Shown here piece by piece: positions 34,846 through 53,560 of a stretch of 64,000 nt of DNA (the first letter of the stretch is position 1; the number at the start of each line of letters is the position of its first letter). The notes beneath the pieces are model-generated. The model was not told the origin of the DNA. It did not search any database and saw only the letters and a list, made by a program, of their open reading frames with translations. This stretch comes from a virus. Lineage: Duplodnaviria > Caudoviricetes. Position numbers and translations under genes: made by a program. Location of the stretch: IMG/VR virus record IMGVR_UViG_3300023119_000004. The stretch is one strand, 5' to 3'.

Positions 34846-35090
34846 TAATAACCAAATTCCCTTTCTTTACGGCGAACTTCTTTAAGCCAACGGGCACGAC
34901 CTGCCGCTTTTGCTTTCTTACGTCTTTCACTAGGTTTAATATAGTGTTGACGTTCACGTAGTTCTTGGAGTACTCCATCTTGTGAAACTTTTCTTTTGAA
35001 TGTTCGTAGTGCTTTATTAAAGTCGCCATTTTTTACTTCGACGGTTAACCCTTTGAAATGGTTATCGTCTTTCTTCCGTTGTCTTGACAA
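34845..35090 (-). CDS. rpsU: Ribosomal protein bS21 (copy 2, N-terminally extended)
   Basis: VEVKNGDFNKALRTFKRKV...ELRERQHYIKPSERRK. Confidence 0.92.
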   Translation of the reverse strand: MSRQRKKDDNHFKGLTVEVKNGDFNKALRTFKRKVSQDGVLQELRERQHYIKPSERRKKAKAAGRARWLKEVRRKEREFGY

Positions 35091-35466
35091 AATACTGTTC
35101 TCCTTCTGCTATCTGTCGAAGATCGTAGACTCTATTATTACTAATTAAATTATATGGTCTTTCGTTGTTACTTGTCAAGTAAAAAGTTTTAGATAATGGA
35201 AGAAGATATCCAATAAGCCAAACACAACTACTAGGCACATTATCTACATCAATAATAATGTAATCTACGTAATTAGAAACCTCAATAACCCAATCCTGTT
35301 CTTCTTTGCTATCAAAAAGGTACAGATTAATATCCGCTTTAATATTCTTTGCAACTTCATTAAACTGTTCTTTTATATTGTCGCTAGGATTAACCAAAAG
35401 AAAACTTAAATTATTATTCATAAGTTTATCTGGAGGTGTGATCAGATTAATAATAGGTTCACTCAT
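35062..35466 (-). CDS. Hypothetical protein
   Basis: 134-aa ORF, LITPPD N-terminus. Confidence 0.65.
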   Translation of the reverse strand: MSEPIINLITPPDKLMNNNLSFLLVNPSDNIKEQFNEVAKNIKADINLYLFDSKEEQDWVIEVSNYVDYIIIDVDNVPSSCVWLIGYLLPLSKTFYLTSNNERPYNLISNNRVYDLRQIAEGEQYFVKTTEERR

Positions 35467-35556
35467 AACAAAATTACTTATTTAATTATTTGTGGATCTT
35501 GTGCCAAACTGAATTATCAGTTTGTTCGGAATTTTGAACGTATGTGTCTGGTTCAA

Positions 35557-37257
35557 TTACTGTTGTGAAGTTGGGTCTTGTTCTTCCGGCTGTGTTTTCT
35601 TGCGGATTTGTTTGTTTTCTACTTTGGTTATGTACGAGGTTGCGTTCGCTCTTTTTTTTTGAAACTCTGGTGTTAACTCTTCTGCGTAAAAAATTCTATT
35701 CTTAGTATCTGGAATATCACTTTCTTCTGTTTCTTTTTCTGCTTCTTTGTTTGCGGCGTCAACCCATTCATTCCATTTGTCTAAGTCTGATGTCATATTA
35801 ACTTCAGGTTCAAGTTCTTTTTGTTCTTCTTCAAAGTTAGGTGGTTCGTTAACTGCTATCTTTTCAGCACGAATTTTTTCATACTCGTCAAAGTTTACTT
35901 CTTTATTGTCATCATCTTGTACTTCAACTTGTTCCATTCGCTGATCATGTTCAGTTGTGTTGGAAGTATCATCCTCTGGTACCACAGTTCCGTCATCTGC
36001 ATCTGCATCATAACTAGGGTCTTGTAAATCTCTATCATCGTCATTATCCTTGTTTGGACCTTCTGGGTCTGACTTTGGGGGCAAACTACCTCCTTTGTCC
36101 TCACGGTACCAATTGAATGTGTACTGTGATGCAATTAGAAGCAATACTGCTAATGGGTCAAACACAAAGATAATAATAATGATTACCCAACGTACTGCCG
36201 CTTCTAATAATGTTTGATCTGCTTGTTCACCGTAGATAAATTCTGCAATATACTTAATAGGTCCTACTTCTGCTTCTAGTTTACGATATTCGCCTTCAAT
36301 TTTATATTTCTGTTCTACTAGTGTATCTATTTCTGTATTAGCATTTTTAATTCTTAATGTTTGTGTATCTATTTCTGCGTCAATGCTATCTGCTTTATCT
36401 GTATTACCTAACTGCTTACGTAATCTGTCAATAAGAGCATTTGATTGTTTAACTTGATCTTCAGCAGTCTTACGTAGACGTTTAATTTCTTCAGCGGCCG
36501 CTTTAGCCTGTGGATTATTTGTTGCTTCTTCAATCTTTTTAATTAGTGCTAAACGTTCTTTCTGTTTTTCGTCTTGCCAGTCGCCAATTTTATCTGCTGT
36601 CTTTTTACCAAAGATGCCATCTGCACTAGCACCAATCATTTGTTGTGCTTTTTTAGTTTCGCCGTTGTCAATATAACCTTGTAGTGTTTCAATTTCGGCA
36701 TCTATTTTAGCAAGTTCACTACGCCATAATGATGCTTGGCTATCAATTATAGCCTGTTGTTCATCGATGGCAGGTTGAATTCTTTTATAAGCATTGTCGA
36801 TACGTTCTTGTTCTTTGTCAATTTGTGATTGTATGTTAGCGTCAGAACCTGTACCGCTTGATTCTAGTTTTTTAATTTGATTTTCTGCACGAACAATAAT
36901 ATCTTCGTTTCGTTTAATTTCGTTCTCAATACGTTCTACTTGTGCAATACTTTCTGTACCTGCACTAGTTTGTTCAATATGTGCTTTAGATAGGAATCCA
37001 AAAATACCCATACTTGTAATAAACATTAATACGAGTACTGCTATAGATAGATACGTCTTAAGCCACCATGCGGCTCTTTCCCAGTTTCGGTGTAACCATA
37101 CTGCTGTAACTAGTTTACCTACTTCTAAAGATACACCCATTACAATAATGGGAATTGCGGCCGCGGCAAATATAGCCACTAAGCCTGCGACACTATAATA
37201 TATTGCTACTGCTGAAATTGTCAGAGCAGAAAAGAATGTTAAAAAACCTAATACCAT
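35557..37257 (-). CDS. Multi-TM coiled-coil protein (DUF4407-like); -1 frameshift isoform ends at 35486
   Basis: N-terminal TMs, GIFGFLSKAH, long coiled coil, VGPIKYIAE, FVFDPLA, acidic tail. Confidence 0.75.
   Translation of the reverse strand: MVLGFLTFFSALTISAVAIYYSVAGLVAIFAAAAIPIIVMGVSLEVGKLVTAVWLHRNWERAAWWLKTYLSIAVLVLMFITSMGIFGFLSKAHIEQTSAGTESIAQVERIENEIKRNEDIIVRAENQIKKLESSGTGSDANIQSQIDKEQERIDNAYKRIQPAIDEQQAIIDSQASLWRSELAKIDAEIETLQGYIDNGETKKAQQMIGASADGIFGKKTADKIGDWQDEKQKERLALIKKIEEATNNPQAKAAAEEIKRLRKTAEDQVKQSNALIDRLRKQLGNTDKADSIDAEIDTQTLRIKNANTEIDTLVEQKYKIEGEYRKLEAEVGPIKYIAEFIYGEQADQTLLEAAVRWVIIIIIFVFDPLAVLLLIASQYTFNWYREDKGGSLPPKSDPEGPNKDNDDDRDLQDPSYDADADDGTVVPEDDTSNTTEHDQRMEQVEVQDDDNKEVNFDEYEKIRAEKIAVNEPPNFEEEQKELEPEVNMTSDLDKWNEWVDAANKEAEKETEESDIPDTKNRIFYAEELTPEFQKKRANATSYITKVENKQIRKKTQPEEQDPTSQQ
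35651..35663 (-). other. Slippery site TTC-A9-G (candidate -1 frameshift/transcriptional slippage)
   Basis: TTT CAA AAA AAA AGA; -1 frame open for 55 codons with no start codon of its own. Confidence 0.65.
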
Positions 37258-37318
37258 GCTGTTCCTTTTTATATACATTATATTTATCGACGCTTTTGAT
37301 ATTAGATAAGTGCTATTT

Positions 37319-37759
37319 TTATCGAATAAAACGCCAACCCTTATGTCCTGACTCTTTACAAGCCGTTTCTTTAAAGTTTCTAGTTTTGCCTTTATATAAC
37401 AATGTACTTGCTAGGGTACGACAATACCCGCTACCTTGCGGATAAGTGGATAGAACTAACACTTTGCCGTTAGTTCCTGTTTGATTATTGTACCATGATG
37501 ACTCTTCGCCATTCTCTAGTGTGTTAAGAGCAAAAAAGATAGATTGTTCTTGTTTTAATCTATCTTCTTGTGGAAGTCTATACCAATGCCACTTACCTAG
37601 ATTAACTAGGATACCTACATACCCGTTGGACGGTTGATATGTTGACTCTACACTAGATAGTGTGCTATCACTTCTATGATATGTATCTTGTGATGTTGTT
37701 GAACACGCCCCTAAAAAACTAGTAAGGACTATTAACAATATACCATCGCGAAGTTTCAT
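37319..37759 (-). CDS. Lipoprotein, RT0821/Lpp0805 (17-kDa antigen C-terminal) family
   Basis: Lipobox LGAC; W.N..TG..G.V......GSGYCR....Y.G.....TACK. Confidence 0.75.
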   Translation of the reverse strand: MKLRDGILLIVLTSFLGACSTTSQDTYHRSDSTLSSVESTYQPSNGYVGILVNLGKWHWYRLPQEDRLKQEQSIFFALNTLENGEESSWYNNQTGTNGKVLVLSTYPQGSGYCRTLASTLLYKGKTRNFKETACKESGHKGWRFIR

Positions 37760-38057
37760 AACTGTTACCCTTTACTAGACAAGCATAGCCTTTACGTTCG
37801 ACCATTTGTCCATTAATGTTAACTTCATACCAATGTTCTCTACAACTTTCTGCTAGACCCATTTTAGGCGGTAGCATCTTTTTAACTACATTGTCACTAC
37901 ATTGGACAATAGTATTACTAGATACTGTCTTACCATCCTTTATTTGGATTGTTTCGTCTGTTTGGCAGTATTGTGGTATATGACTTTTTGTTGCCACTTG
38001 ACCTGTACTGCTACACGCCGACATCAGAATTACAGATAGTAGAAGAACATACTTCAT
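37719..38057 (-). CDS. Cys-rich lipoprotein
   Basis: Lipobox MSAC; four further Cys. Confidence 0.7.
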   Translation of the reverse strand: MKYVLLLSVILMSACSSTGQVATKSHIPQYCQTDETIQIKDGKTVSSNTIVQCSDNVVKKMLPPKMGLAESCREHWYEVNINGQMVERKGYACLVKGNSYETSRWYIVNSPY

Positions 38058-38058
38058 A

Positions 38059-38550
38059 TTACTGAGCCTGCTTTGATTCTAGAATCAGTCTATCAAATAC
38101 CTCTAAAGGCATTTTAATACGAACGTATGTATGAACCCTATTAGTACTTGCTAACTGATAAGAGTACTTCTTAACTTCAAGATGTTCTCTAATAGTTGTG
38201 TCCTTAACAAGGTGTTCAACTCTTGTTGAATCGTTTCGTGTGTCGTTTTTAATGTCAACAACTGTAGATGAATTTACAGTTCCGTTGATTCTTTCTGCAA
38301 AGCCTTTTACTGCGAATGCATAAGCCTGTGATTCACTTGCTTGTTCGTATAGACTTTCGCCCATACCACACGCATAAGCATAATCAGTTTTCCAGAATAA
38401 AAATCCTTCTGCACCAATTTGCTCACAGTCAGCATACCAATTTGGATTTGCCTTTGTTTCTCTAACTTCGAGTGTCTTCATCGATGTACAAGCACCTAAC
38501 ATAGATGCAACTACACCAATTAGTAACACATTCTTTAATGTGCCTTTCAT
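38059..38550 (-). CDS. Lipoprotein (LPP20-like)
   Basis: Lipobox LGAC; P.WY..C...YACG.G.S...A...A. Confidence 0.7.
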   Translation of the reverse strand: MKGTLKNVLLIGVVASMLGACTSMKTLEVRETKANPNWYADCEQIGAEGFLFWKTDYAYACGMGESLYEQASESQAYAFAVKGFAERINGTVNSSTVVDIKNDTRNDSTRVEHLVKDTTIREHLEVKKYSYQLASTNRVHTYVRIKMPLEVFDRLILESKQAQ

Positions 38551-38637
38551 AAATTTAAGCCTCCTTAGCCTATTCGTTTAATTTACTATTACAGTATATA
38601 CAAATATAAATCAAAAGTCAAGTGGAAATTTGCCAAT

Positions 38638-39096
38638 TTAATTTCGACGCATTTGTGCGATTTCTGTGGCTTGTTTCTTACCATTACCGCTATCGTCTTC
38701 AAAAATTGGAACCATATTACTTTTGTGCATTGTAGCAATGCCCAAAAGTTTTCTTTCACCTGTGTACTGCATTGGTTCCTTTTTAGTACAGGGTGAAAAA
38801 CTTGCTGACGTTTGTAAACTTGGAATGTGTTTTGTTTCACGGGTAACAGTTGGGCCACTATAGTGCCACGGTGTATTGATAACAGTTTCTGTTTTGGTTT
38901 TTGGTTTGTATTCTCCGTGAATGTAATCAATGTACTCGTCCAAAGTCATCATTAGTTTATGAAGTCCTTGTTTCTTGTATTCTTTATTTCGAATACGTAA
39001 ATCTTCTTTCCAACGATCTAACTTTGCCTGTGTAATTTTACGCTTCTTCTTAGTTGTGTTAAGAGTAGTTAAGCCTCGAGCCAAATGCATTGTCAT
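38638..39096 (-). CDS. Conserved phage hypothetical protein
   Basis: YTGERKLLGIATMHKSNMVPIF C-terminus; early promoter at 39128-39156. Confidence 0.7.
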   Translation of the reverse strand: MTMHLARGLTTLNTTKKKRKITQAKLDRWKEDLRIRNKEYKKQGLHKLMMTLDEYIDYIHGEYKPKTKTETVINTPWHYSGPTVTRETKHIPSLQTSASFSPCTKKEPMQYTGERKLLGIATMHKSNMVPIFEDDSGNGKKQATEIAQMRRN

Positions 39097-39169
39097 ATTG
39101 TCACCTTTATGTTACATTAACACACTTATTGTAGTATATAGATGACAAAAAGTCAAGTGAAATTTAGCC

Positions 39170-39193
39170 AAAAAAATAGGGCCCGAAGGCCCC
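39170..39193 (-). terminator. Rho-independent terminator after porin
   Basis: GGGGCC-TTCG-GGCCCT hairpin followed by T7. Confidence 0.8.
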
Positions 39194-39209
39194 ATCTTTT
39201 ATTTTAGTA

Positions 39210-40259
39210 TTAGAATTTGTATTTGACGCTTGCCAATACTTGCTGTGTTTCAGCGTGTTCGGCACCAGTAAATACGGAACGTCCACCTTTATCGTGGTAG
39301 TAAAGTCCCATTTCCAACCCGTCCTGTTTGTCAGAACGTTTTGAAGGATCGTAGTTTGTTGCTAGGTTATATACTACACCGTAGTAGTTACCATCATATC
39401 CTAAGTCATCATTTTCAGTTCTGTGTGCTGTAACATAAACGTTTTTGTTTACGTTATACATTACACCGTAATCTAAACGATCGTCTTTTGTATATGTGCC
39501 TGTATTCTTATCGTCCCACAGTTCAACACCCCAAACTAATGGAACGTTCCATCTGTATAAACTACCACCAATTGAATAACCTTCTTGGTCACCTTTGCCT
39601 GAATCTTCAGGAGAAGTAATACGCATATAAGATACATCTGCATAACCCATTAAACTAATTGTACCTGTTGCATAACCTACGTTTCCGTCGTTATCCCAAC
39701 CAAGTGAAACACCCCAAGGCTGTTCTTTCTTTAGTCTATATGAATCAAAATCAAATTCGTTGTCATATTCCCAACCACCAAATGTTAACACAGTTTTTTC
39801 TCTGTGATCAATTCTGTAGTTTGTTTCTGTATAGATTAGTGGAACAGAAATTTTAGGAGTCTTTGCGAATCCCATTCTTTGTGCGTCAGTTTCACCAATG
39901 TACCATCTTGCTACATCATTACCAAAACCTAATTGCTTTTCTTGAACAGTATTGTTTAATGTTGTATCTAATGAATAGTGAGTGTCGTACTTCATTGATG
40001 CCCCAATCCAATCCACTGAAAGTGTTTCAGGAATGTTTGTTGAAATACCTAGTTGCAATTCTGCACGTGAGTCCCAACCTGAATCATAGGTTTTGTCATC
40101 ATAGTAACCTTCTACTTCACCATTTACAAAAAAGCCTTGCGGCAAGTTTGGAATATTATTTTCTAAAGCCTCTACTCTTTCTTCAAGACTTTTGTCATTA
40201 GCCAATGCACCTGTTGCAAATCCAAACAGGATGGCTAACACTAATGTTAGTTGTTTCAT
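39210..40259 (-). CDS. Outer-membrane porin (beta-barrel)
   Basis: Signal peptide ..GALA, short coiled coil, alternating aromatic beta pattern, C-terminal VKYKF beta-signal; late promoter at 40321-40328. Confidence 0.75.
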   Translation of the reverse strand: MKQLTLVLAILFGFATGALANDKSLEERVEALENNIPNLPQGFFVNGEVEGYYDDKTYDSGWDSRAELQLGISTNIPETLSVDWIGASMKYDTHYSLDTTLNNTVQEKQLGFGNDVARWYIGETDAQRMGFAKTPKISVPLIYTETNYRIDHREKTVLTFGGWEYDNEFDFDSYRLKKEQPWGVSLGWDNDGNVGYATGTISLMGYADVSYMRITSPEDSGKGDQEGYSIGGSLYRWNVPLVWGVELWDDKNTGTYTKDDRLDYGVMYNVNKNVYVTAHRTENDDLGYDGNYYGVVYNLATNYDPSKRSDKQDGLEMGLYYHDKGGRSVFTGAEHAETQQVLASVKYKF

Positions 40260-41769: not shown

Positions 41770-41953
41770 CGTCTTTTTTCTTTAGGCTCCAATTACCATT
41801 GTCTAATTCTTCCCAGATAAGTGTATCGCCAATGTCCCAACCTACTTGGGCTAATGCTTCTGGGGGGAGTTCTAAATATAATTCTTTTGTCTTGCCATCT
41901 TCTTGAACTTGAACAGTCCAAGAATTTTCACCGGTCTGTATTGGATTTCGTAT
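41762..41953 (-). CDS. AbrB/MazE-like swapped-hairpin small protein
   Basis: LYLELPPEALAQVGWDIGDTLIW. Confidence 0.55.
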   Translation of the reverse strand: MRNPIQTGENSWTVQVQEDGKTKELYLELPPEALAQVGWDIGDTLIWEELDNGNWSLKKKDDV

Positions 41954-41974
41954 CATTGCTGTCACCTTTGATAA

Positions 41975-42296
41975 TTAAAAAGTGCAACTTTTCTGTTGCT
42001 AGGGAAGTTGCCACCCCCGAGTGATTATGCCGCTAGGGCAAAATCCTCAGAAAGACGAACGTCTTTTTGCTCACCGAAGTTTACAAAAGAAACGTTGTCC
42101 AATGCTTTATCGTTTGCATCTATAACGTTTGCTTGATTTACGGTCATCGCCTACCGGTAACTCCACGTTCTCTAGTACATCAGTCGATCCCGATCACCCC
42201 CTCAAAGCACACTCTGTGAATGTGTTTTAAGTGAATGGTGGAGGTGGGGGGAATTGAACCCCCGTCCTGCCTGTGTTCGATTGGCTTCATCGTTAC
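41975..42296 (-). ncRNA. ssrA: Circularly permuted two-piece tmRNA
   Basis: Acceptor piece first (T-arm GGGGG-TTCAATT-CCCCC, CACCTCC-A-CCA ending 42236), 34-nt spacer, then coding piece starting GGGGGTG at 42201. G3:U70 Ala determinant; tag ANDKALDNVSFVNFGEQKDVRLSEDFALAA* at 42117-42025; terminator hairpin near 41975-42010. Confidence 0.92.
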
Positions 42297-42303
42297 AATA
42301 CTT

Positions 42304-42332
42304 ATTTAACTACATTTTAACGCACTTGTCAA
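42304..42332 (-). promoter_or_regulatory. tmRNA promoter TTGACA-N17-TTAAAT (overlaps TAAATA)
   Basis: Hexamer spacing. Confidence 0.6.
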
Positions 42333-52319: not shown

Positions 52320-52670
52320 TTATGAGAGTGCGTTATCTGTTGCTCTTTGAGCCATTTGGTCAACTTCGCCGTCTGCAGGCTCTTCACCACCTGTCATTGG
52401 TTCTTCGGAGTCTGTTTTAGTTGCAAGTGTTAATCCCTTATCGTCAAAGTTTTTGATAAGTGGTTGAATATCTGGATTAGCATCATAAATCATTTTGAAA
52501 CCATCAAAGTCAAACTGTGGTGCTTTCATATTACGCATGATTTGGTTTAGTGCGTCCCAAGATAGATAGGCAGGCTGATCTTGATTGTCAGCACTACCTA
52601 TCATGTTTCTTAAAACTTTAATGAGAATGTTTTTGGAAGGTTCTTCTTCCTCAGATAACGTTAGGCCTTT
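52320..52670 (-). CDS. -1-frame extension of the scaffold-like protein (ORF track calls it from ATG 52604)
   Basis: Frame open from TTC at 52679 to stop at 52320; no SD before ATG 52604. Confidence 0.6.
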   Translation of the reverse strand, partial: KGLTLSEEEEPSKNILIKVLRNMIGSADNQDQPAYLSWDALNQIMRNMKAPQFDFDGFKMIYDANPDIQPLIKNFDDKGLTLATKTDSEEPMTGGEEPADGEVDQMAQRATDNALS

Positions 52671-53560
52671 TTTTTTGAATCAGTTAATAACTGACCTAAT
52701 CTTCTGCTTCTTAGTACGCTTTCTCGTTTGGCCCTGTCTGCCGTTTCTTCTCCGCCTGTTGCTGGTTCACTTGCGGCAAATTCGTCTGCTACTGGTTCTT
52801 CAGCACCGGCTTCTTGATCAACTGTAGGTTCCATTGCTGGTTCCTCTGCTGGAGCCTCACCTTCTGCTCCTGGCATAGTTTCTGGTCCGCCTTCGCCTGT
52901 TACAATGGCTACGCCACTTGTTAGTGCATCACGAGTTGTTTCGAATGTTGTGTAAAGAGATTCAAGTGCTGGTTTTACAGTATTAACAAATTGCTCACTT
53001 ACTTCTGAACCTAGTTCGTCTCTAATCTTGTCGCCTAGTTCTAGCATTGATTCTGTTTGCATTTCTGCTGTATCTTCCATCCAGCCTGTAATTCTGTCAA
53101 CCATGTCCTTAGCGGCCATGACCAAAGTTGCTTCTTCTTCAGCACCTTCTTTTACTACAGACTCATCTTTCTTGCCAAAGTATTTCTTTTGCTTGTCTGA
53201 CATACCTGAGTCTTTGCCTGATTCTTTATCTTTGATAGCCTTCTTCATAGGCTCTTTTTTGTCACCATCTTTGTCCATATCAAGGAAGTCTGGTTTTGCT
53301 TCATTAGTTTCACGTTCAGAAATTTCAGCGTTAATAACATCAAGGAACATTTTTGCTTTCTGATAAGTGTCGCTAGTGTTTACAGATTCAAACTTTTCAC
53401 TCATTTCAACTTGACTAAGTTGTGTACGTAATCTATTACGTGCATCTTCGAGTTGTTCATTAGTAAACTTCTCTATTGCAATACGTTGTCCAAAGGTCTT
53501 AGCAAGGCTCTCATTTAGCGCCTTTGCTGTTAATGGTTTTCTAAGTTCTTTTAATTTCAT
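52661..53560 (-). CDS. Prohead core/scaffold-like acidic coiled-coil protein
   Basis: E/A-rich; KPDFLDMDKDGDKKEPMKKA motif; late promoter at 53586-53593. Confidence 0.55.
   Translation of the reverse strand: MKLKELRKPLTAKALNESLAKTFGQRIAIEKFTNEQLEDARNRLRTQLSQVEMSEKFESVNTSDTYQKAKMFLDVINAEISERETNEAKPDFLDMDKDGDKKEPMKKAIKDKESGKDSGMSDKQKKYFGKKDESVVKEGAEEEATLVMAAKDMVDRITGWMEDTAEMQTESMLELGDKIRDELGSEVSEQFVNTVKPALESLYTTFETTRDALTSGVAIVTGEGGPETMPGAEGEAPAEEPAMEPTVDQEAGAEEPVADEFAASEPATGGEETADRAKRESVLRSRRLGQLLTDSKKKA
52667..52679 (-). other. Slippery site TTC-A9-G containing A AAA AAG
   Basis: GAT TCA AAA AAA AAG GCC TAA. Confidence 0.7.

Follow-up and report, generated by a model that had tools for sequence, protein, structure and literature searches.

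A nine-adenine run near the 3' end of a membrane coiled-coil gene of marine T4-like phages is a probable programmed -1 recoding site with two conserved C-termini

A run of nine adenines (A9) close to the 3' end of a gene for a large membrane coiled-coil protein is, to judge from a broad set of its relatives, very probably a programmed recoding site, at which a conserved -1 shift would give two proteins from one late gene. The gene lies on the minus strand of a 64,000-nucleotide stretch of viral DNA (hereafter the window; IMG/VR record IMGVR_UViG_3300023119_000004, Duplodnaviria; Caudoviricetes), which belongs to a giant, uncultured T4-like phage of marine (salt-marsh) origin. Comparative analysis shows that the site, the frames and both of the alternative tails are conserved, with substitution patterns indicative of selection. 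It is less certain which machine slips on the run, the RNA polymerase or the ribosome, and the same protein results from either.

On the minus strand of the window the run stands in the context TTT CAA AAA AAA AGA (A9 at 35660-35652), 101 nt ahead of the stop of a 573-codon open reading frame (ORF; 35557-37278; Table 1). Beyond the run, frame 0 has 31 further codons, RANATSYITKVENKQIRKKTQPEEQDPTSQQ, before a TAA at 35559-35557. The -1 frame is open for another 55 codons past the lysine run, ending in YVQNSEQTDNSVWHKIHK at a TAA at 35488-35486, 19 nt short of the ATG of the next gene at 35466. The frame-0 end consists of a basic motif (X; SYITK..QIRKK) and the -1 end of an acidic one (Y; TVIEP..YxQNSEQ..W), while the +1 frame meets a stop 10 codons after the run. 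Upstream, the -1 frame is closed by a TAG at 35698-35696, and the interval between this TAG and the A9 contains no ATG, GTG or TTG. A first-pass annotation, made by a model from the sequence alone, had described this site and its two readings exactly, and its observations that the -1 frame has an upstream TAG and no start codon of its own are both borne out. The true start of the gene is probably the ATG at 37257 rather than that at 37278, as it is preceded by AAAGGAA and gives a protein of 566 residues, the same as in identical database copies.

Homopolymers are classic hot spots for miscalls and indels, and the same annotation had recognized that a miscalled run would undo its reading. We weighed the explanation that the split is either such a miscall or a DNA-level phase variation, in which replication slippage alternates between A9 and A10 and the functional gene carries Y in frame. 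Positions 35000-35925 are covered without a break, at a word depth of ~82, by an independent DNA run whose sample was not flagged as the likely source, and contigs of two RNA libraries likewise span the A9 without gaps. Since these independent DNA and RNA-library contigs agree, the A9 is not a miscall and is real in the DNA. The frame-0 protein was further recovered on 38 contigs (28+8+1+1), the run is exactly A9 in 44 distinct sequences from many independent projects, and none of 165 contigs has Y brought into frame through an A10. Moreover, X is selected in frame 0 and followed by a conserved stop, which is not expected were A10 the true state. One contig does speak for such variation, namely L182 (MDTB01143047.1), an A8 copy of the A9 lineage L017 in which neither X nor Y is in frame; it represents either a homopolymer assembly error or a rare DNA-level variant. 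Taken together, we regard a miscall or phase variation as the least probable of the explanations that we considered.

To place the site in the context of its family, we used loci gathered without regard to A-runs, via either the N-terminal domain (80 loci) or the Y motif (31 from IMG/VR and 80 from metagenomes). The 165 loci with Y reduce to 117 distinct sequences, which fall into 67 clusters at 85% nucleotide identity. Across the family, motif X takes the form of a lysine run followed by Y-I/L-T/M-K-x4-Q-I/V-R-K, and motif Y that of (R-I-K-)P-D-L-T-E-V-I-E-P-x2-Y-x-Q-N-x-E-Q-x3-S-x-W. The C-termini built from them are diverse: many members end with X, many have only Y, often with a further helical domain after it, and some carry X and then Y in a single frame (L024, L025, L028, L057, P0113 and P0010). 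Of the 117 distinct sequences, 50 have Y in a different frame from the main ORF, and in 49 of these 50 a run of A8-A10 lies directly before X, as it does in all 24 clusters with the split arrangement. Among these 49 split sequences the run is A9 in 44, A8 in two or three and A10 in two or three, and it is never shorter than A8. The frame of Y is -1 in every split sequence other than two odd contigs, L182 (discussed above) and L180, the latter having an unrelated break upstream. Conversely, the remaining 67 distinct sequences have Y in frame, and the runs within 135 nt do not exceed A6, except in one lineage (L050; IMGVR_UViG_3300008963_000055), where an A9 ~136 nt before the stop is followed by Y in frame 0 and an intact X in +1. 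In two of the split lineages (L046 and L086) X has been lost, leaving a frame-0 tail of 8 codons, with the A9 and the split retained. Thus, the conservation of the -1 peptide, which the first-pass annotation had proposed as the check on its reading, is evident, together with the association of the out-of-frame peptide with the run.

The patterns of substitution point to both tails being functional as protein. In 34 sequences from split genes the ratio of nonsynonymous to synonymous polymorphism (pN/pS) of Y in the -1 frame is 0.25, close to the 0.19 seen for Y in its own frame in the in-frame genes, and at least 1.2 when the same nucleotides of the split genes are read in either of the other two frames. 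No stop interrupts Y in any of the 49 split sequences (24 clusters). X, in turn, has a pN/pS of 0.35 in frame 0 (37 distinct sequences). Read in the -1 frame the X nucleotides give a pN/pS of 1.27, yet are stop-free in 37 of 37, as against 1 of 37 in the +1 frame; the -1 reading of X is therefore apparently a spacer, which must only stay open. Because X and Y are each under purifying selection and the -1 frame is open across X, we infer that both tails are made as protein. This lends support to the two isoforms envisaged at the outset and adds selection on the frame-0 tail to the picture.

These observations also bear on the possibility that only the frame-0 protein is made, with the Y stretch being a decaying remnant of an ancestral in-frame tail or translated separately by reinitiation after the frame-0 stop. 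Relatives with X and then Y in frame do exist, so a frameshift mutation could have severed Y from them, and in some relatives a TTG (the leucine codon of PDLTEV) near the frame-0 stop could serve reinitiation. However, a remnant would not be expected to show purifying selection like that on the in-frame motif, to remain stop-free in 24 clusters, or to keep the -1 frame open across X, and neither alternative accounts for the conserved A-run and its length. As a start-like codon for Y (ATG, GTG or TTG) is absent in 20 of 47 sequences and is an ATG in only 2, independent initiation of Y is unlikely. Overall, we consider a remnant or reinitiation very improbable. We also rejected the idea that the frame change which would restore the ancestral order, X and then Y, takes place at the frame-0 stop instead of at the run: there is no slippery sequence at that stop, the run is conserved, and the -1 frame is open across X, opening only at the run in some lineages. 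Specifically, the -1 frame of the relatives opens anywhere from 66 nt before the run to 2 nt inside it, in one lineage at a TAA overlapping the first A of the run, and the stretch that is open in both frames always includes the run and is at minimum 43 nt long.

How then would the ribosomes come to read Y? We posit that the host RNA polymerase stutters on the nine A's and adds one A to a fraction of the mRNAs. Such A10 mRNAs would then be translated normally to give the -1 product, with X read as the spacer and an acidic Y end, whereas unshifted decoding would give the basic X end. The two products would differ only at the C-terminus, having in common the membrane region, the coiled coil and the greater part of a tail that is disordered and probably cytoplasmic, and subunits with and without Y would be made in a fixed ratio. 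We give this route by RNA-polymerase slippage an even chance; explanations that invoke neither the polymerase nor the ribosome are, even when combined, unlikely. The alternative is -1 programmed ribosomal frameshifting, where the lysyl-tRNAs in the P and A sites slip on A_AAA_AAA or A_AAA_AAG and produce the same isoforms from an mRNA that stays A9. We take this to be a serious possibility, if one falling appreciably short of even odds.

Polymerase slippage is favored by three lines of evidence: the lack of a stimulatory structure, the retention of an extra A outside the ribosomal heptamer, and the purging of long A-runs elsewhere. First, neither a stable nor a conserved hairpin or pseudoknot was found downstream of the run: across 17 lineages this sequence gives a mean z of -0.44 (0.42 for the window itself), with minimum free energies ranging from -0.5 to -10.6 kcal/mol and no common fold. 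The upstream (5') sequence of the same 17 lineages has a mean z of +0.20, and a search of Rfam gave no hit to a frameshift element at the site. The contexts before the run (tagatct, cagaccc, cagagtttc) do not share a GGAG or AGGA, by eye and with no formal test. Second, the ribosome would need no more than six or seven A's, yet exactly nine are present in 44 of the 49 split sequences. Two codon phases are in use, NAA AAA AAA AGN (phase II, as in the window) and NNA AAA AAA AAG (phase I), which again sits poorly with the ribosomal alternative. The lysine codons of the 29 phase-I sequences (14 clusters) are preceded by TCA, CTA, CCA or TTA; hence, the encoded residue varies between serine, leucine and proline, but the third-base A, with which the run begins, is retained at a synonymous position three bases outside the X_XXY_YYZ heptamer. 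Across the split sequences as a whole it is the run length that is conserved, not the codon phase. Third, the 64-kb window has 16 A/T runs of length 7, none of length 8 (~6 being expected by geometric extrapolation) and two of length 9. Likewise, none of the 11 lysine tripeptides in the ORFs of the window is encoded as AAA AAA AAA, against 4.0 expected at 71% AAA usage. A/T runs of at least 8 are, therefore, purged elsewhere in the window. This reading accords with the finding that bacterial RNA polymerase slips efficiently on 9 A/T, matching its 9-10 bp hybrid, a property exploited in Thermus dnaX (PMC5009743).

The lineage with the swapped arrangement, L050, is pertinent here: with Y in frame 0 and X in +1, X is reachable only by base loss or a +1 shift, and ribosomal frameshifting would require a +1 event at the same run. 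Nevertheless, there is only one such lineage, and the X in its +1 frame may be a relic of recent origin. Other observations, too, weigh against a slipping polymerase. An in-phase ribosomal heptamer is present in 49 of the 49 split sequences, being A_AAA_AAA in the class of the window and, in 34 of the 49 distinct sequences, A_AAA_AAG, the most shift-prone of the bacterial heptamers (PMC5009743). The RNA-library contigs show only A9, as the ribosomal alternative would have it, although contigs cannot reveal a minority of A10 transcripts. Phage frameshifts can, furthermore, operate without strong stimulators. More weakly, no protein with the fused junction or the linker was found in a collection of 5.8 billion proteins. 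The 3' phase is also retained by the A8 and A10 variants, as would suit a ribosomal site; this carries no weight because such variants arise when a base at the 5' edge is substituted.

The recoding trick itself is already known, and what is new here is, with good support, a conserved slip site in this phage family; in the literature consulted, no paper connected transcriptional slippage or programmed frameshifting with cyanophages, pelagiphages, marine T4-like phages or this family. The closest parallel is Thermus thermophilus dnaX, which also has nine A's in the coding region, requires no stimulatory structure, and yields in tau and gamma a pair with a common N-terminal body, a differing C-terminus and a fixed ratio (PMC5009743). 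In Thermus dnaX, however, the alternative frames both stop at once and give only truncation, while the phage gene has a conserved 57-codon -1 tail in addition to a different, likewise conserved, frame-0 tail, and encodes a membrane protein; slippage in the phage gene is also putative. Transcriptional slippage giving C-terminal extensions is known from spa13 and mxiE of the Shigella type III secretion system (PMC5009743). As proposed for the phage gene, slippage on these A/T runs leads into a start-less ORF abutting or overlapping the next gene, in the setting of envelope-associated machinery. The phage gene differs from those of Shigella in that its unshifted tail is a conserved motif in its own right and in that the arrangement extends over a very large phage gene family. 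Turning to ribosomal systems, conserved recoding giving a minor C-terminal variant of a late protein at fixed stoichiometry is familiar in phages from lambda G/GT and T7 gene 10A/10B. Those cases are ribosomal, operate at G_GGA_AAG-type or similar sites, and concern tail-chaperone and capsid genes, in contrast to the polytopic membrane protein in an envelope gene cluster considered here. The E. coli dnaX gene combines an A_AAA_AAG heptamer with an upstream Shine-Dalgarno-like element and a downstream hairpin. The phage site resembles it in having a slippery site of lysine codons, a putative -1 shift near the 3' end and two predicted isoforms, with A_AAA_AAG in most relatives. It differs from E. 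coli dnaX in having neither a hairpin nor, by eye, a Shine-Dalgarno-like stimulator, in having 8-10 A's rather than 6, in the A_AAA_AAA phase of the window, and in that the shifted product would be the longer one.

The split state is scattered over a tree of the N-terminal domains, with at least 7 changes for 10 rows, and the nearest relative of the window gene (L004; 86% identity) carries an in-frame Y followed by a further domain. The tail is thus a mosaic, and it appears that the cassette comprising the A9, X, the stop and Y has either spread by recombination or undergone repeated loss. In two relatives (L012 and L110) the PDLTEVIEP half of Y precedes the cassette instead of following it.

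Besides the A9 of the membrane protein gene, the window has a single A/T run of at least 8, an A9 at 52668-52676 on the minus strand, in the context GAT TCA AAA AAA AAG GCC TAA (52661-52680), two codons before the stop of a 299-aa ORF (52661-53560). It has in common with the A9 at 35652-35660 the 13-mer TTC-A9-G, and each run leads into a start-less -1 ORF, but the two genes are unrelated and the codon phase is different. Separately, the tails of certain relatives, though not that of the window gene, have a second A8-A10 run at (E/Q/K)KK-E-S-S-E-E-S, lying ~272 nt (L017) and ~371 nt (L048) before the frame-0 stop. A -1 peptide of the form R-I/V-x-G-R-I/V-K, ending 5-12 codons later, was detected in 26 of 54 distinct tails, always at most 30 nt from an A8-A10 run. 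The glycine of this peptide lies over a frame-0 TCG, CCG or TTG codon in 22 motif-anchored sequences; the third-base G is invariant while the frame-0 residue varies, so the -1 peptide looks selected. This second site may accordingly be another recoding site, yielding a truncated isoform with a basic end.

A broader proposition may be drawn from the occurrence of TTC-A9-G in two unrelated genes of the window from which other runs of at least 8 have been purged, the second A8-A10 site in the family, the swapped arrangement of L050 and the scatter of the cassette over the tree: this phage lineage might use RNA-polymerase slippage on runs of ~9 A's as a general, bidirectional device for its late proteins. 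We advance this only tentatively, at a little less than even odds. If true, a single property of the polymerase would set the isoform ratios of several proteins simultaneously, and this would be the first 'slippage regulon' described for T4-like phages.

Table 1. Features at and around the A9 run of the membrane coiled-coil gene, in window coordinates
Feature	Position	Strand	Remarks
Putative recoding site, A9	35652..35660	-	Frame 0 CAA AAA AAA AGA; phase class II
Module X, frame-0 tail motif SYITKVENKQIRKK	35596..35637	-	Unconserved linker in the -1 product
Frame-0 stop, TAA	35557..35559	-	Embedded in the -1 codons for V-I of module Y
-1 extension, 57 codons from the first Lys codon within the A9	35489..35659	-	Without a start codon of its own
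Module Y, conserved -1 tail RTRPNFTTVIEPDTYVQNSEQTDNSVWHKIHK	35489..35584	-	Alignment and pN/pS; in frame in many relatives
Stop of the -1 product, TAA	35486..35488	-	19 nt before next gene
TAG closing the -1 frame 5' of the A9	35696..35698	-	Window sequence
Membrane coiled-coil gene, frame 0	35557..37278	-	573 aa from ATG 37278; probable start ATG 37257
Downstream syntenic gene, 134 aa, ITPPD motif	35062..35466	-	ATG overlaps the Y-frame stop in many relatives
GATAAATA, T4-type late-promoter-like	37281..37288	-	24 nt before the probable start

The membrane coiled-coil protein has more than 8000 database matches, all of them unnamed. Its AlphaFold2 model has N-terminal hydrophobic helices, a confident coiled coil (110-340), a further hydrophobic helix (355-394) and a tail of 180 residues (390-573) that is disordered save for one helix, the predicted template-modeling score of the whole protein being 0.30. 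The coiled coil (~230 residues) contains DGIFGKKT, a motif like those of peptidoglycan-binding proteins, and by the positive-inside rule would be periplasmic, with the tail in the cytoplasm. Profile searches recovered only sub-threshold matches to Tetraspanin and TssO in Pfam and nothing usable in PHROGs, and a search of the ESM Atlas with the membrane protein returned only unnamed viral clusters. At the DNA level, a near-identity search of the window against deposited phage genomes gave no match. Translated searches with tblastn gave only distant or partial relatives, and so no cultured phage with the split arrangement was found by this means; the best named match is a 326-aa homologue without the tail in Pelagibacter phage Mosig EXVC030M. 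This short form (L195; MT647606.1, 115144-116124) is the only homologue from a cultured phage with good coverage, and its gene lies directly after one for a 'putative glucosaminidase' and five genes ahead of a GH108 gene.

In T4-like phages the late-promoter motif is TATAAATA/NATAAATA. The window gene has the element GATAAATA upstream, and in 17 of 42 distinct relatives ATAAATA lies no more than 70 nt from the start, the background being 0.002 per 70 nt. Both observations are in keeping with a late promoter of the T4 type and make the earlier labeling of the protein as late plausible, whereas the lysis or assembly role suggested along with it is conjectural. Directly upstream of the gene (37319-40259, minus strand) are three consecutive lipoprotein genes coding for 146, 112 and 163 aa, with the lipoboxes LGAC, MSAC and LGAC respectively, and one for a 349-aa protein with a signal peptide and the ending ...VKYKF, resembling an outer-membrane beta-barrel; no Pfam families were detected in these neighbors. 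We considered and rejected a tail assembly chaperone of the G/GT kind, given that the neighbors are the lipoprotein, outer-membrane-protein-like and ITPPD genes and that the protein combines hydrophobic helices with a coiled coil. A spanin was likewise rejected in view of the several N-terminal hydrophobic helices, another after the coiled coil and the 180-aa disordered tail. No holin or endolysin was identified next to the membrane protein gene in this window. A predicted complex between the Y peptide and the downstream 134-aa protein scored 0.00, which counts neither for nor against binding. Elsewhere in the window (41934-42330, minus strand) are a phage tmRNA of the permuted form, with a tag ending in ...DFALAA, and four tRNA genes (Arg-gcg, Thr-tgt, Gly-tcc and Trp-cca); there is no tRNA-Lys gene in the 64 kb.

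The split arrangement has an immediate consequence for annotation. Roughly one in five of the genes sampled (11 of 54 distinct N-terminal domains) is wrongly annotated with the frame-0 stop as its end, so that a conserved C-terminal motif is concealed. When genes are called in viromes, an A8-A10 run close to a 3' end should be flagged as a potential recoding site. Among the unnamed protein families of marine T4-like and jumbo phages, that of the window gene is one of the larger. The gene also offers a clean natural system for distinguishing polymerase from ribosomal slippage in a phage that relies on the host RNA polymerase. Finally, that relatives have X and Y fused, Y alone, or X alternating with Y appears to mark these motifs as docking sites on the cytoplasmic tail, and as such they provide a handle on the function of the membrane coiled-coil protein. 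By analogy with tau/gamma and G/GT, it is plausible that the role of the recoding is to fix the ratio of X-ended to Y-bearing subunits in an envelope-spanning assembly.

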